A stretch of 64,000 bases of DNA from a virus: the IMG/VR virus record IMGVR_UViG_3300030390_001550, positions 1 to 64,000 of that record; one strand, given 5' to 3'. The notes under the pieces were generated by a model, which did not search any database, was not told where the DNA came from, and was given only the letters and a program-made list of their open reading frames with translations. This document shows positions 36,033 to 45,814 of the stretch, piece after piece (the first letter of the stretch is position 1; each line of letters opens with the position of its first letter). The translations under genes were made by a program, and so were the position numbers.

Positions 36033-37091
36033 ATGAAAAAACTTTTAGCAATCGTAGCAGCGGGAATGATGTTAGCAACAAGCGCATTCGCTGGGGATAA
36101 AGTAAAAGTAGGGTTTGTCTACGTTGGACCAACTGGTGATCATGGGTGGACATATCGTCATGATATTGGTCGCCAAGGAGTGCAAGACCATTTCGGTGAC
36201 AAAGTTGAAACTGTATATGTAGAAAGTGTTAAAGAAGGTCCAGACGCTGCAAGAGTTATTCGTGGTATGGTAATGGACGGTGCTGATATTATTTTTACAA
36301 CATCTTTTGGATATATGGAACAAACGCTAAAAATGGCGAAAATGTTTCCTAATGTAAAATTTGAACACGCAACTGGATATAAGCAAGCAAAGAATATGTC
36401 TAGTTATGGGCTTAGATTATATCAAGCACGACACGTACAAGGTATTATTGCTGGACTTATGACAAAAACAAATAAGATTTGTTATGTTGCAGCATATCCA
36501 ATTCCAGAAGTTATTCGTGAAATTAATACCTATTTTATGGGCGCACGTAGAATGAATCCAGACGTTGAAATGGATATTGTATGGGTAAATACTTGGTATG
36601 ATCCCGGAAAAGAGTCGGATGCTGCTAAAGCCCTCATGTCCCAAGGTTGTGATATGATTGCACAACACACAGACTCTCCTGCGCCAATGCAAGCAGCAGA
36701 GGCACAAGGTAGACATGGCTTTGGTCAGGCATCAGATCAAATTGTGTTCGCGCCAGATGCACAATTGACTGCAACTATTGATAACTGGACTCCTTATTAT
36801 ATTCGTAAAGTTGGAGCAGTTATTGATGGAACTTGGGAGAGTGAGAACTATTTTGGTGGTATGAAAGAGGGTGGTGTGCAAATGGCCCCATTTACCAATA
36901 TGCCAGATGCAGTTCGCGCCAAAGCACAAGAGGTAAAAGACCAAATTGAAAATGGCGAATACTTTGCTTTCACTGGGCCATTATATGATAATGAAGGAAA
37001 TCTTCAACTCGCTGAAGGTGAGGTCGCAACTGATTTTCAGTTAAATTCAATGAATTATTATGTTGAAGGAATTAACGCGAAAGTACCTTAA
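36033..37091 (+). CDS. BMP-family ABC transporter substrate-binding protein (purine/nucleoside type)
   Basis: Signal peptide; GFVYVGP.GD.GWTY.H, TSFGYM, PIPEVIR.IN, W.DP.KE, QHTDS. Confidence 0.92.
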   Translation: MKKLLAIVAAGMMLATSAFAGDKVKVGFVYVGPTGDHGWTYRHDIGRQGVQDHFGDKVETVYVESVKEGPDAARVIRGMVMDGADIIFTTSFGYMEQTLKMAKMFPNVKFEHATGYKQAKNMSSYGLRLYQARHVQGIIAGLMTKTNKICYVAAYPIPEVIREINTYFMGARRMNPDVEMDIVWVNTWYDPGKESDAAKALMSQGCDMIAQHTDSPAPMQAAEAQGRHGFGQASDQIVFAPDAQLTATIDNWTPYYIRKVGAVIDGTWESENYFGGMKEGGVQMAPFTNMPDAVRAKAQEVKDQIENGEYFAFTGPLYDNEGNLQLAEGEVATDFQLNSMNYYVEGINAKVP

Positions 37092-37102
37092 ATAATTATT
37101 AA

Positions 37103-37130
37103 TGGAGACTCCAATGGAGTCTCCAACTTT
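37103..37130 (+). terminator. Rho-independent terminator
   Basis: TGGAGACTCC-AAT-GGAGTCTCCA then ACTTT. Confidence 0.75.
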
Positions 37131-37144
37131 AGGATTGATTTAAT

Positions 37145-37726
37145 ATGAATAATACAACAAATGGCGGTTCACAACCAGCAATGATTCCACCAAAAATGCA
37201 ATTAATTTCAAATGGAATGTATGTGTTTATGGGTGATGTGTCTATGGATACGATGAGTCCAATTATTGATTGGATATTATCAGAAAATATGAAAAGAAGT
37301 GATAGACAAAAAGAATTGACTTTAGGTATTTGCTCAAGAGGTGGTGATCTTAATGCTTGCTTTGCATTAGTTGATGTTTTGAGAGCATCAACAATTCCTG
37401 TTAAGACTGTAGGATTAGGTATGATTGCATCTTGTGGTTTGCTTTTATTTATATCTGGACAAAAAGGTAAAAGAATTTTAACACCAAATACTGCAATTTT
37501 ATCTCATCAATATTCTTGGGGTAGTGTAGGTAAAGAACATGAATTGTTTGCCAGAGTGAAAGAGATGGAACTCACAACCGAGCGTATGATTAATCATTAC
37601 AAAAAATGCACTGGGATGAATGAAAAAAAAGTAAGAGAGTTTCTTCTTCCACCAGAAGATGTTTGGTTAAGCGCAGAGGAAGCAAAAAGTTTAAAACTTT
37701 GTGATAAAATAGAAGATATACAATAA
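37145..37726 (+). CDS. clpP: ClpP-like serine protease
   Basis: S.GGD, G.IASCG (Ser), LSHQ (His), DVWLSAEEA (Asp). Confidence 0.85.
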   Translation: MNNTTNGGSQPAMIPPKMQLISNGMYVFMGDVSMDTMSPIIDWILSENMKRSDRQKELTLGICSRGGDLNACFALVDVLRASTIPVKTVGLGMIASCGLLLFISGQKGKRILTPNTAILSHQYSWGSVGKEHELFARVKEMELTTERMINHYKKCTGMNEKKVREFLLPPEDVWLSAEEAKSLKLCDKIEDIQ

Positions 37727-37754
37727 AAATATTACTAAATACATCTAATGAGTT

Positions 37755-37780
37755 GAGGAAGCCTTGGCTTCCTCTTTTTT
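37755..37780 (+). terminator. Rho-independent terminator-like hairpin
   Basis: GAGGAAGC-CTTG-GCTTCCTC-TTTTTT. Confidence 0.75.
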
Positions 37781-37797
37781 TAAAAGAAAGAGAGAAA

Positions 37798-38625
37798 ATG
37801 ACACAACTGATAAATCCAAAGAAATTTACTAACACTGTGGGGCTTTTACGCTCCTTTTTTTTGACCAGAGGGTTTCAAGAAGTACATACGCAAAATAGAT
37901 TAAGCATTTTAGCAGCATGTGAAGACCCAGAAAATGTAGCAAGTTATAATTATGAAGGTGAGGTTTGGCCTTTACCGCAAACAGGTCAAATGTGGCTAGA
38001 ACATGAATTATTATCTGATCCCTCTGCGAAGGGATTTTTTTGTGTCTCCACTTCATATAGACAAGAACCAAACGCAATTCCAGGTAGACACGATACGATT
38101 TTTCCTATGTTTGAATTTGAAATGGCAGGTGATATTAATGATCTTAAAGTTATGGAAAGACAATTAGTAAGTCACTTAGGTTTTGACGATTGCACAGAGA
38201 AAACGTATGGAGAATGGCAGCAACATTATGGTGTTAGTGCAAATACCGAATTGGATGCCCAACATGAGTTGGCAATGCAAGCATCATTCGGTTCTTGTAT
38301 GATTACAGATTTTCCAGAGATAACAAGTCCGTTTTGGAATATGTCTAGAAACGAGGATGGTACAAGTAGAAAAATTGATGTTATCCTTGGTGGTATGGAA
38401 ACTATTGGTAGTGCAGAACGCAGTACCGACAAAGAACAAATGAGAAACACATTTAATACAATTTCTAATGGTGAATATGCTGGACTCATCAAGAGTTTAT
38501 TTGGAGATGAAAGGGTTGAGGCAGAACTTGAAAAGTTTCTTGAGTTTGATTTCTTCCCAAGAGTTGGTGGTGGTATAGGGTTGACACGAATGATATCCGC
38601 TCTAGAAACTCAAAAGAGTAACTAA
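37798..38625 (+). CDS. Class IIb aaRS catalytic-domain-only protein (AsnRS/AsnA-like)
   Basis: Motif 1 LRSFF...GF.EV.T, LPQTGQM.LE, motif 2 YRQE...RH...F.M.EFE, ETIGSAER, motif 3 GGGIGLTR; no N-terminal OB-fold. Confidence 0.85.
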   Translation: MTQLINPKKFTNTVGLLRSFFLTRGFQEVHTQNRLSILAACEDPENVASYNYEGEVWPLPQTGQMWLEHELLSDPSAKGFFCVSTSYRQEPNAIPGRHDTIFPMFEFEMAGDINDLKVMERQLVSHLGFDDCTEKTYGEWQQHYGVSANTELDAQHELAMQASFGSCMITDFPEITSPFWNMSRNEDGTSRKIDVILGGMETIGSAERSTDKEQMRNTFNTISNGEYAGLIKSLFGDERVEAELEKFLEFDFFPRVGGGIGLTRMISALETQKSN

Positions 38626-38634
38626 AGCGCATAT

Positions 38635-38745
38635 TCTGGGGTGGTGGAATAGGTAGACACGCGATACTGTTTATATCGTGGATATATAGTTAAGTGTAAA
38701 AGACTATTTATATTCGTGAAGGTTCGAGTCCTTCCCCCAGAGCCA
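38635..38745 (+). tRNA. Non-canonical tRNA-Asn(GTT), 111 nt, extra-long variable arm
   Basis: TCTGGGG/CCCCAGA acceptor, G73, CCA; CGATA-CTGTTTA-TATCG anticodon arm; GAAGG-TTCGAGT-CCTTC T-arm. Confidence 0.85.
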
Positions 38746-38759
38746 AAGGAAATAAAAAA

Positions 38760-39623
38760 ATGATACCAGTGATTGATTTAAATTCTTCATATGCAAATCA
38801 GCATATTGAGGATGCCTACACATCTGTGGGTTTTGCAGTTTTTACTAATAGTTTAACTCAAATTGAAAAGTCTGACATAATTAGTTGGTTTAGCGAAATG
38901 AAAGCATTTTTCAATTTACCTGATGAAATAAAGAAAAAATATCCATATGAAGGCGATACCAATCTAGGATATAGCATGGTGGGTGATGAAAATGTTGATC
39001 CAACAGCACCTAAAGACATTAAAGAATCTTTCAATTACAATAATACAAGAATGAGCGAATATCTTTGGCCCAAAGAACTTCCAGGATTTAAAGCAACAGC
39101 ATTACAAAGTATTGATGTTGCAGACAAACTTACGATTAGAATACTTAGTAGGTTTGATGAAATTCTAAAATGTGGCACTACTCTTGTGGACGCTCATATG
39201 AAACCATTTAACACTACAAGAGTTATTCATTACCCAGCCCATGATGGTCCAGTAGAAGATAAGCAAATGAGAATAGGTGAACATAGTGACTATGGTACTA
39301 TCACATTACTGTGGCAAATTAATGATGTTCCAGGATTGCAAGTTCAAGACTTAAAAGGAGAGTGGCATCCAGTGCCATATGATGTTGACGGTGTGGTTGT
39401 GAATATTGGCGATCTACTCCAGAGATGGACAAACGATTACTTTAAAAGCACTAAGCATAGAGTAGTTAATTCGCATATACATAAGACTAGATACAGTATG
39501 CCACATTTTGTTGATCCTACTCCAGGAACAATGGTGAAAAATTTGAGAACCCATGAGGTTGACAAGTACTTACCTATTGAGAGTAAAGAATATTTGATGT
39601 GGAGACTAGCACAAAGTTATTGA
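38760..39623 (+). CDS. 2OG-Fe(II) oxygenase, isopenicillin N synthase family
   Basis: IPVIDL, GF, D.KE.F, R..HYP, HSDYG.ITLL.Q, GLQV, NIGD.L.RWTN...ST.HRV, RYS. Confidence 0.92.
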   Translation: MIPVIDLNSSYANQHIEDAYTSVGFAVFTNSLTQIEKSDIISWFSEMKAFFNLPDEIKKKYPYEGDTNLGYSMVGDENVDPTAPKDIKESFNYNNTRMSEYLWPKELPGFKATALQSIDVADKLTIRILSRFDEILKCGTTLVDAHMKPFNTTRVIHYPAHDGPVEDKQMRIGEHSDYGTITLLWQINDVPGLQVQDLKGEWHPVPYDVDGVVVNIGDLLQRWTNDYFKSTKHRVVNSHIHKTRYSMPHFVDPTPGTMVKNLRTHEVDKYLPIESKEYLMWRLAQSY

Positions 39624-45520: not shown

Positions 45521-45745
45521 ATGCTTACATGCTTAATAGTTGCAGGATCATTATGGATAGGTGATGACACTAGGATGTTTCCAACACAAGGAGCGTTTTA
45601 TTTTATTAAACAAAGAGATGTGATTGTAATTTATGATAATTCAAAACGAACAAGAATCGCTAGTTTTGTAATACCAAAGAATGTTAAAGGCGATACTATA
45701 AAAGAAGTATTTGAAAATTGTAATAACGCTCCCATGGTGGAATAG
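45521..45745 (+). CDS. Hypothetical protein
   Basis: AAGGAG RBS; 3' end overlaps tRNA-Leu. Confidence 0.55.
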   Translation: MLTCLIVAGSLWIGDDTRMFPTQGAFYFIKQRDVIVIYDNSKRTRIASFVIPKNVKGDTIKEVFENCNNAPMVE

Positions 45746-45814
45746 GTAGACACACCAGACTTAAAATCTGTTGCCCATAGTGGCGTCCCAGTTCAAGTCT
45801 GGGTGGGAGTACCA
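45728..45814 (+). tRNA. tRNA-Leu(TAA)
   Basis: GCTCCCA/TGGGAGT, CAGA-CTTAAAA-TCTG, type II variable arm, A73, CCA. Confidence 0.95.

Follow-up and report, generated by a model that had tools for sequence, protein, structure and literature searches.

Prochlorococcus phages P-SSM7, P-SSM2 and P-SSM5 carry the tRNA-Asn genes PSSM7_130, PSSM2_199 and PRTG_01001, each directly downstream of a gene listed as "tRNA ligase" (T4-GC 194). These tRNAs are 85-86 nt long, have anticodon GUU, discriminator G73, a leucine-tRNA-like body and a variable region of 17 nt, and are found by standard tools. In P-SSM7, the enzyme gene sits inside a tRNA array, between tRNA-Leu(UUA) and tRNA-Asn. The comparative study of Sullivan et al. 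2010 (PMC3037559) notes that tRNA genes co-occur with non-syntenic regions but, supplements excepted, only lists "tRNA ligase" in a table, and our literature searches, which likewise did not cover supplements, returned no paper that studies this enzyme/tRNA pair. Canonical bacterial tRNA-Asn is a type I molecule with a short variable loop and A37, the site of t6A; its determinants are the anticodon G34-U35-U36 and G73, while U1-A72 is the determinant for GatCAB (PMC9976931). Other natural tRNAs, some in phages, have a body type and anticodon that do not match the textbook pairing and may act as suppressors or regulatory RNAs, such as the allo-tRNAs, which have 8/4 or 9/3 acceptor/T geometry (Mukai et al. 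2017, PMC5389517), and phage tRNAs with anticodon-loop changes that evade tRNA-targeting defences have been reported (van den Berg et al. 2023, PMC10264068). Stand-alone AspRS/AsnRS-like catalytic cores of about 290 amino acids without an anticodon-binding domain are exemplified by asparagine synthetase A (AsnA) and archaeal AS-AR (PMC9437257). GluQRS (YadB), cited in PMC9437257, is a truncated GluRS that modifies tRNA-Asp. It is a class I enzyme without an anticodon-binding domain that still acts on a QUN-type tRNA, and it is not known to have a dedicated tRNA gene.

Here, we analysed a related locus in a marine phage (IMG/VR record IMGVR_UViG_3300030390_001550; the window referred to below is the whole stretch of 64,000 nucleotides, positions 1 to 64,000 of that record). 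An earlier note, made from the sequence alone, described a tRNA with a Leu-type D-arm, an Asn anticodon, U37 and a variable region of about 39 nt. That observation is confirmed: every feature it described is present in the sequence. The module is the same as in the three Prochlorococcus phages, with enzymes 63-69% identical to that of the window, but the tRNA is longer, with its variable region expanded to 39 nt, and is missed by standard tools. Its acceptor/T geometry is the standard 7/5, not that of an allo-tRNA.

Table. Features of the tRNA locus and of the tRNA-Leu gene in the window.
Feature	Position	Strand	Description
Synthetase-like gene	37798..38625	+	Class IIb (Asp/Asn/Lys-type) catalytic core, 275 aa, no anticodon-binding domain; stop 9 nt before the tRNA; longer open frame begins at TTG 37753; terminator-like hairpin at 37755-37774
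tRNA, anticodon GUU (Asn)	38635..38745	+	Type II, 111 nt; acceptor stem 38635-38641 with 38735-38741; U1-A72; G73 at 38742; encoded CCA at 38743-38745
D-arm region	38642..38660	+	19 nt identical to tRNA-Leu(UAA) of the phage (there at 45735-45753); 3-bp D stem, 38644-38646 with 38658-38660
Anticodon arm	38662..38678	+	Stem strands CGATA and TATCG; loop CUGUUUA at 38667-38673; anticodon GUU at 38669-38671; U37 at 38672
Variable region	38679..38717	+	39 nt; hairpin 38680-38715 with 12 bp, 2-nt bulge at 38707-38708 and 10-nt loop at 38692-38701
T-arm	38718..38734	+	GAAGG, TTCGAGT, CCTTC
2OG-Fe(II) oxygenase gene	38760..39623	+	Starts 14 nt after the tRNA; probably on the same transcript
tRNA-Leu(UAA)	45728..45814	+	Apparent source of the scaffold

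The Rfam tRNA model (RF00005) matches over its full length (positions 1-71 of 71) with 43.8 bits, against a gathering score of 29, and E 3.2e-08 when a 401-nt stretch is searched alone; ARAGORN, and Rfam with its fast filters on the whole window, both miss the gene, although both find tRNA-Leu(UAA). RNAfold gives the cloverleaf, including the variable-arm hairpin, as the minimum-energy fold, but folding energy alone is not significant (z is -1.69, and 9 of 200 shuffles fold as well). The proof that the structure is more than chance comes from homologues. In an alignment of 57 distinct sequences, 99.9% of core-stem cells pair, against 37-61% when the partners are slid; 15 of 20 pairs keep pairing through changes on both sides, including all five of the anticodon stem, and none of 500 shuffles reaches this. 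A variable-region hairpin is predicted in 56 of the 57 sequences, and in the 34 homologues of mid length the arm is 97% paired, against 37-54% when slid, with two of seven pairs changing on both sides.

The same tRNA lies directly downstream of the enzyme gene in 74 of 80 related viral loci, with one more cut by a contig end, and in 72 of 75 rows the frame of the enzyme stops 4-11 nt before the tRNA. In a reciprocal scan seeded only with the 3' end of the tRNA, 85 of 92 loci with enough upstream DNA have the gene within 200 nt, and 21 more have a partial gene cut by the contig end; some contigs occur in both sets. The tRNA was found without the enzyme in six of the 92 testable loci. The variable region forms a continuous series from 13 to 39 nt. 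ARAGORN called none of the 59 longer forms correctly, treating them as unreadable or assigning a wrong anticodon. GTT, A72 and G73 are invariant columns in the 57 sequences, and U1-A72 holds in 56 of 56, the remaining row having a gap because an annotated start is one base short. The loops of 100 distinct sequences all carry GTT as well, although loops were located by requiring it. In contrast, acceptor pairs 2-7 vary, and position 37 is U in 74, A in 23 and C in 3 of these 100; the anticodon-loop changes, in which these tRNAs, like the defence-evading phage tRNAs, depart from the host-type consensus, affect positions 32, 33, 37 and 38 and vary within the family. The 23 members with A37 have the canonical loop CUGUUAA. 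The determinants of bacterial tRNA-Asn are all present, whereas the type I body is absent from all members and A37 from the window and most of the family; t6A37 cannot be made on a pyrimidine. A 72-73-nt tRNA-Asn in another locus (L274) is an example of the canonical form with the same marks.

The interpretation offered in the earlier note is partly supported, and its reading of a chimeric or re-purposed type II scaffold is supported. The D-arm, the base of the variable arm and the T-arm align with tRNA-Leu(UAA) of the same phage, the latter two being similar in the short forms. The identical 19-nt string occurs exactly twice in the window, with none expected by chance in 100 shuffles. The acceptor stem, the discriminator (G instead of A) and the anticodon differ from tRNA-Leu and carry the bacterial Asn marks. 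Two outcomes that the note had set as refuting it, a variable arm lacking compensatory changes in homologues and excision of the 39-nt segment, were looked for. Compensatory changes are present in the arm. In four RNA-library runs, two contigs carry the arm intact and none joins across 38680-38717, but such libraries can contain DNA, contigs cannot show mature small RNAs, and parts of the stretch without cover in X15, X16 and X18 say nothing. The only joint seen (38408 to 38521) comes from one contig of a roughly 93%-alike relative, with a 29-letter side, and was set aside. However, U37 is not a fixed design feature, the giant arm is a lineage-specific expansion of a 13-nt Leu-like arm rather than a defining trait, and the note did not mention the decisive context, the synthetase-like gene just upstream. 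Its further suggestions, avoidance of host modification or anticodon nucleases and action outside translation, remain possible. By eye, the conserved TATTTA on the 3' strand of the arm is the reverse complement of part of a T4-type late promoter, but all the genes here are on the + strand and the match is imperfect in most homologues, so this idea was dropped.

In the enzyme, Pfam PF00152 is the only domain found (58.3 bits, residues 23-288). The ATG start is inferred from the terminator-like hairpin and from an Atlas record that starts at residue 16. A single-sequence AlphaFold model was uninformative (pLDDT 38), but prediction with an alignment gave a single catalytic domain with pLDDT 94, for which the top Foldseek hits are AsnRS and AspRS, 1X54 first. 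The nearest solved relatives in a profile search are AsnRS (2XGT/2XTI, E 1.2e-14), with AS-AR (3P8T) more distant at E 7.2e-07. Profile alignments to 2XGT and 8TC8 show class II motifs 1-3 and the flipping-loop Glu to be intact; in human AsnRS, E279 contacts the Asn moiety (PMC10831071). Aligned with four AsnRS and three AspRS sequences from cellular genomes, the enzyme has the AsnRS states at the positions that separate the two, with Glu four residues after QxxQ and no Lys at +3, Arg-His in motif 2, and Glu rather than Asp at the end of motif 2. Nevertheless, it lacks the N-terminal OB-fold of a full AsnRS and scores only 23.9 bits with asnS (TIGR00457), against a cut-off of 342.6. A LysRS or EpmA reading, suggested by the first phmmer hits, was rejected after the profile search and the residue comparison. 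EpmA (TIGR00462) scores 16.5 bits against 286.9, and the pocket Arg of the Asp/Asn type is present in ETIGSAER. A plain AsnA/AS-AR reading is not supported either. NF005055 scores 16.7 bits against 389, TIGR00669 is not hit, and cellular orthologues score at most 28.4 bits; the protein forms its own deep clade, and its gene context is pyrimidine rather than asparagine synthesis. Among 40 carrier genomes, asnS passes its cut-off in 22, asnB in 17 and asnA in one, with no clean complementarity.

Phage (61 rows) and cellular (63 rows) proteins share 85 positions conserved at 90% or more, including the whole active site, and differ consistently at only three. At 68 cellular loci with 45-60% identity, ARAGORN finds no tRNA abutting the gene; one has an ordinary tRNA-Asn about 200 nt downstream, behind a hairpin followed by a T-run. 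Jumbo phages LR756501 and LR756508 carry a 42-45% identical enzyme but no tRNA downstream. Neighbouring pyrD or pyrE/pyrF genes occur in 14 of the 68 cellular loci, named in the records as Bacteroidota, Myxococcota, Chlamydiota and Proteobacteria MAGs, and fusions exist with DHODH (protein P0124, 56% identical to the window protein) and with OMP decarboxylase (protein P0137). The aspartate carbamoyltransferase gene pyrB passes its cut-off in two of the 40 carrier genomes, against 14 of 14 controls, and three hits below the cut-off proved to be ornithine-type carbamoyltransferases. For pyrC, TIGR00857 passes its cut-off in one of 40 genomes, with eight at E <= 1e-15; as this profile was used alone, leaving out the dimeric type, we make no claim that dihydroorotase is missing.

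The analysis establishes a genuine, conserved phage tRNA gene with a type II, leucine-tRNA-like body, the three marks of bacterial tRNA-Asn and a base-paired variable arm expanded in this sub-lineage from about 13 to 39 nt. It lies between an AsnRS-derived catalytic-core enzyme and the oxygenase gene (identified by Pfam), with no promoter-like or terminator-like site in between, and an RNA-library contig spans 38646-38818. Charging, decoding and the activity of the enzyme are inferred from sequence alone. Our preferred reading, which is tentative, is that the tRNA is charged by host enzymes through the classical Asn identity set, either by AsnRS or by a non-discriminating AspRS followed by GatCAB, which needs U1-A72, should the host possess these enzymes and should they tolerate a 12-bp variable arm. 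It would not be charged by its neighbour, which has no anticodon-reading domain, and once charged would read AAU/AAC. G73 should keep LeuRS and TyrRS off the Leu-like body, and C2-G71, which occurs in 48 of 57 sequences, should keep SerRS off, both being published antideterminants (PMC9976931). In this view, the enzyme is a metabolic, asparagine/aspartate-adenylating enzyme of pyrimidine synthesis, the two genes travel and are expressed together because both draw on asparagine, and the giant arm and the pyrimidine at position 37 are tolerated, and possibly protective, elaborations. Demand for the tRNA is high: AAT is the third commonest codon, at 4.97% of 24,189 codons, with AAC at 1.21%, and the other tRNAs of the phage also read A/U-rich codons. 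However, an AsnRS-like pocket next to an Asn anticodon is unlikely to be chance, and the near-exclusive co-occurrence points to a tighter coupling than a shared substrate. Furthermore, a pyrimidine at position 37 in 77 of 100 members is unexpected for a tRNA that must decode ANN codons well, which counts against a plain translational role.

A private pair, in which the enzyme itself charges this tRNA with asparagine, recognising the acceptor end (U1-A72, G73) and perhaps the type II shape, is less likely but not excluded. It would give the phage an Asn-charging route independent of the host. The strong adjacency and tight spacing, the AsnRS-like pocket, the invariant acceptor marks and the fact that class II enzymes generally face the variable-arm side of tRNA favour it. 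On the other hand, the cellular orthologues have the same active site without a dedicated tRNA, coexist with a full-length AsnRS in at least 22 of 40 genomes, and are embedded in or fused to pyrimidine genes. An enzyme without an anticodon domain cannot explain the invariance of GUU, the arm that would face it varies from 13 to 39 nt with the same enzyme, and, of the stand-alone class IIb cores, AsnA does not charge tRNA (PMC9437257) and AS-AR and EpmA are not known to. Somewhat less likely still is a tRNA that is not primarily a decoder but a dedicated carrier. Host ND-AspRS and GatCAB, or AsnRS, would load asparagine onto it using exactly the three invariant marks, and the neighbouring core would take that asparagine into a previously undescribed, ATP-dependent entry to pyrimidine synthesis that bypasses aspartate carbamoyltransferase, a tRNA-dependent metabolic step comparable to Glu-tRNA in haem synthesis. 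The phage would bring its own tRNA because its host would make asparagine only on tRNA. This would fit the freedom of position 37, which matters for decoding, the AsnRS-like pocket of the enzyme, its pyrimidine context in genomes mostly without a pyrB hit, and the rarity of the tRNA without the enzyme; but no chemistry is known that needs aminoacyl-tRNA for pyrimidine rings, cellular orthologues manage without a dedicated tRNA, the encoded CCA, the normal T-arm and the 7/5 geometry suit ordinary translation, and demand for AAU is high.

A merely historical link, for example by capture inside a tRNA array, with the tRNA serving mainly as an RNase P/Z processing site that separates the cistrons, is improbable. 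The array of P-SSM7, the short distances to both flanking genes and the ordinary tRNA-Asn near one cellular homologue are compatible with it, but the match of Asn anticodon to AsnRS-like enzyme would be a coincidence of roughly 1 in 10 to 1 in 20 by our estimate, and the identity marks are strictly conserved across more than 100 distinct sequences, which a processing signal would not need. That the AT-rich 39-nt segment is an excised insert, or that the gene is decaying, is very unlikely, given the covariation at the base of the arm, its pairing, the continuous length series and the four intact core stems.

Long-variable-arm tRNAs are known for Leu, Ser, bacterial Tyr and Sec, and a widespread family of Asn-marked type II tRNAs, mostly with a pyrimidine at position 37, would extend the rules of tRNA architecture. 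As the family is largely invisible to a standard tRNA finder, phage tRNA censuses may undercount it. The fixed partnership with an anticodon-domain-less AsnRS-like enzyme could represent a natural minimal synthetase/tRNA pair, which would be useful for orthogonal translation, or a link between a tRNA and nucleotide metabolism. The enzyme family itself looks like a candidate replacement for aspartate carbamoyltransferase in several bacterial phyla and in abundant ocean phages.

The 111-nt stretch reads as a complete cloverleaf. The acceptor stem is formed by TCTGGGG and CCCCAGA and is followed by G73 and an encoded CCA. The D stem has 3 bp with a D-loop of the leucine type, and the anticodon stem-loop, CGATA-CTGTTTA-TATCG, gives the anticodon GUU and a U at position 37. 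The variable region is 39 nt long and the T-arm is GAAGG-TTCGAGT-CCTTC. RNAfold returns this cloverleaf as the minimum-energy structure, with 12 pairs, a 2-nt bulge and a 10-nt loop in the variable arm, although the energy alone is not remarkable (z = −1.69, with 9 of 200 shuffles folding as well). ARAGORN finds three tRNAs in the window but not this one, and Rfam with its fast filters also misses it; when the stretch is searched alone, it scores 43.8 bits on the tRNA model against a gathering score of 29. The 19-nt identity with tRNA-Leu(TAA) is exact, with none expected by chance. The earlier note, which had described a tRNA with a Leu-type D-arm, an Asn anticodon, U37 and a long variable region, is thus correct in every detail of its description.

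Positions of the features discussed (L-numbers designate loci retrieved in our scans)
Feature	Location	Strand
tRNA with anticodon GUU	window 38635-38745	+
19-nt identity, copy in this tRNA	window 38642-38660	
19-nt identity, copy in tRNA-Leu(TAA)	window 45735-45753	
Synthetase-like ORF, longest open frame	window 37753-38625	
Probable ATG start of the synthetase-like gene (inferred)	window 37798	
Terminator-like hairpin with a T-run	window 37755-37774	
BMP/PnrA-like substrate-binding protein and ClpP-like protease genes	window 36033-37726	
3' strand of the long variable arm, with conserved UAUUUA	window 38702-38715	
Apparent deletion remnant of the tRNA	L207:3867-3950	
tRNA of the sub-group with C (or once G) at position 33	L205:1180-1270	
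P-SSM7 module inside a tRNA array	L081:2221-3391	
Cellular enzyme gene with pyrimidine genes	L240:2875-6003	
Cellular enzyme gene with pyrimidine genes	L212:28-3819	
Cellular enzyme gene with pyrimidine genes	L264:2986-6347	

The note did not mention the genomic context. An ORF ends 9 nt upstream of the tRNA; its probable start is inferred because the terminator-like hairpin, directly after the ClpP-like gene, lies inside the longest open frame, and because the Atlas record of the protein begins at residue 16. Its only Pfam domain is the class II Asp/Lys/Asn synthetase core, on residues 23-288, and there is no anticodon-binding domain. No NCBIfam model comes near its cut-off (the best scores 27.7 bits against 353) and PHROGs lists the family as of unknown function. 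An alignment-based AlphaFold model (pLDDT 94) matches the catalytic domains of AsnRS and AspRS best, the top hit being 1X54 with an E-value of 3.5e-17. A profile of 52 family members hits AsnRS first (2XGT/2XTI, 1.2e-14), then archaeal AS-AR (7.2e-07) and EpmA (2.5e-05). The next gene, for a 2OG-Fe(II) oxygenase, starts 14 nt after the tRNA, and no promoter-like or terminator-like site lies between the three genes. A BMP/PnrA-like substrate-binding protein and a ClpP-like protease are encoded just upstream of the cassette.

The tRNA belongs to a family. The enzyme has more than 590 relatives in viral contigs; in 74 of the best 80 loci, a complete tRNA of the same kind follows the gene, one more is cut by a contig end and five have none. 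In 72 of 75 rows the frame of the enzyme stops 4-11 nt before the tRNA, while in the other three 86-147 nt intervene. A reciprocal scan, using only the 3' end of the tRNA, returned 117 further loci, of which 85 have the full gene within 200 nt upstream, 21 have a gene cut by the contig end, 4 have too little DNA and 7 have no gene; six of these seven carry the same tRNA and one is an unrelated 74-nt tRNA. Some contigs occur in both sets, so the two counts are not independent. On 57 distinct sequences the four core stems pair in 99.9% of cells, against 37-61% when the partners are slid, and 15 of 20 pairs change on both sides. U1-A72 holds in 56 of 56 sequences, and A72, G73 and G34-U35-U36 are invariant. 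Behind a 60%-identical enzyme gene (locus L207) there is no tRNA; only the two acceptor-stem strands plus GCCA remain, joined head to tail, which looks like a deletion remnant.

The variable region ranges from 13 nt (a 3-bp Leu-like arm) through 17, 28-33 and 35 nt up to 38-39 nt, and RNAfold predicts a hairpin in 56 of 57 sequences. In the 34 mid-length sequences the arm is 97% paired, against 37-54% when slid. The two basal pairs change on both sides, one of them showing GC 16, AU 9, CG 5, GU 2 and UG 2, while the distal pairs show only purine swaps opposite a conserved UAUUU strand. The 3' strand of the long arm, in the window and in homologues, keeps a conserved UAUUUA opposite which the 5' strand only swaps A and G, and many arms have a loop containing GCAA, suggesting a sequence-specific constraint beyond pairing. 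The forms of 107 nt or more all belong to the enzymes closest to that of the window (77-94% identity), and the five long-arm rows (109-111 nt) sampled for the tree, including that of the window, form one sub-clade. The giant arm is therefore a lineage-specific expansion of a real structural element. Two contigs from RNA libraries carry the arm intact, one identical to the window over 38646-38818 and the other, from a roughly 93%-alike relative, covering 37753-38778; no contig joins across the arm, although contigs cannot show mature small RNAs and DNA may be present in such libraries.

In 100 distinct sequences, the anticodon loops are CTGTTTA (45), CTGTTAA (23), TTGTTTC (16), TTGTTTG (5), CCGTTTA (4), CTGTTTC (3), CTGTTCA (3) and CGGTTTA (1). 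Position 37 is thus U in 74, A in 23 and C in 3, with the states scattered across the arm-length classes; U37 is common but not fixed. A sub-group, comprising the tRNA of locus L205 and four distinct sequences from the loop survey, has C (or once G) at position 33, where U is near-universal, and some of its members lack an encoded CCA.

Part of this family is already on record. Phages P-SSM7, P-SSM2 and P-SSM5 carry the module, annotated as 'tRNA ligase' plus an 85-86-nt tRNA-Asn. The 2010 comparison of cyanomyoviruses appears only to list 'tRNA ligase' (T4-GC 194) in a table of sporadic host-like genes (PMC3037559), and our literature searches found no study of the pair. ARAGORN calls all 15 forms of 85-86 nt as tRNA-Asn(gtt), but of the 59 longer forms it misses 33 and gives 26 a wrong anticodon. 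In P-SSM7 (locus L081) the enzyme gene lies inside a tRNA array, between tRNA-Leu(UUA) and the tRNA-Asn, which may explain the Leu-like body as a product of recombination between neighbouring tRNA genes. In the P-SSM2 RefSeq record (L082), the tRNA-Asn feature PSSM2_199 is annotated about 2 kb away from where its locus-tag order places it, which looks like a coordinate slip.

Bacterial Asn identity rests on the anticodon and G73, while GatCAB needs U1-A72; G73 is an antideterminant for LeuRS and TyrRS, and C2-G71 for SerRS (PMC9976931). This tRNA has all of these, C2-G71 occurring in 48 of 57 sequences. A Leu-like body would thereby be insulated from the three type II synthetases and marked for the Asn machinery. 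An enzyme without an anticodon domain cannot be the reason why GUU is invariant, whereas decoding, or an anticodon-reading host enzyme, can be. AAT is the third commonest codon of the contig (4.97% of 24,189 codons) and AAC accounts for 1.21%; the other tRNAs of the phage read AGA, UUA and AUG or AUA.

The enzyme is not phage-specific. A scan of one genome per prokaryotic species found 76 loci, of which the 68 at 45-60% identity lie in MAGs or genomes whose record titles name Bacteroidota (Weeksellaceae, Chitinophagales, Aureispira), Chlamydiota, Dependentiae, Patescibacteria, DPANN archaea, Myxococcota and Proteobacteria, some on contigs of 1-3 Mb. In none of these 68 does ARAGORN find a tRNA abutting the gene; one has an ordinary tRNA-Asn about 200 nt downstream, behind a hairpin followed by a T-run. 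Phage and cellular proteins share 85 positions conserved at 90% or more, including every active-site motif, and differ consistently at only three conservative positions. In a quick tree, for which every third phage sequence was used, cellular rows under 200 aa were dropped and the search was not exhaustive, the family is separated from AsnRS and AspRS cores by a long branch, and the 21 phage rows form one clade (SH-aLRT 100) nested among cellular rows. Aligned with four AsnRS and three AspRS from those same genomes, the family shows the AsnRS state wherever the two differ: QTGQMWLE against QxxQ...E (AsnRS) and QSPQxFKQ (AspRS), GRH against RH and RQ, and FEFE against IEPE and IDCE, respectively.

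Clustering of the neighbouring ORFs of the 68 cellular loci gave two recurrent families, dihydroorotate dehydrogenase (10 loci) and orotate phosphoribosyltransferase/OMP decarboxylase (10 loci), in 14 loci in all, which the record titles name as Bacteroidota, Myxococcota, Chlamydiota and Proteobacteria MAGs. Representatives were confirmed by Pfam and the rest are assigned by cluster membership. In these operon-like clusters with pyrD and pyrE/pyrF, found among cellular loci L209-L268 (L240, L212 and L264 are examples), some genes are co-directional with overlapping ends. Two database proteins are fusions: P0124 is DHODH plus this enzyme and is 56% identical to the window protein, and P0137 is this enzyme plus OMP decarboxylase. 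Among 40 carrier genomes, aspartate carbamoyltransferase passes its cut-off in 2, against 14 of 14 controls, while DHODH is present in 21; incompleteness of the MAGs limits all statements of absence. In three genomes, one of them a 3.2-Mb record titled 'chromosome: 1', the weak pyrB hits are ornithine-type carbamoyltransferases. AsnRS passes its cut-off in 22 of the 40, asnB in 17 and asnA in 1.

Our analysis establishes a real, conserved, type II tRNA with Asn marks, whose arm is a structured, lineage-specific expansion and which is bound into a cassette with an AsnRS-derived core; how it is charged and what it does are inferred. We infer that the invariant features are those read by anticodon-dependent host enzymes and by GatCAB, while the features that would face a domain-less class II core vary; the enzyme has no phage-specific adaptation and has a metabolic context in cells. 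We therefore tentatively favour charging by the host, with a link to the enzyme through asparagine supply, although this reading falls short of being more likely than not. A private pair, in which the enzyme charges the tRNA, is possible but rather unlikely, and a carrier role outside decoding somewhat less likely still; mere hitchhiking or a processing role is doubtful, and excision of the arm or decay of the gene very improbable. The Asn-to-Asn match and the free position 37 keep the coupled readings alive. Given its gene clusters and fusions, and the general lack of aspartate carbamoyltransferase in the carrier genomes, the stand-alone AsnRS-like core family is a candidate for an undescribed early pyrimidine enzyme, most likely performing some early, ATP-dependent step of pyrimidine synthesis on an Asn- or Asp-like substrate.
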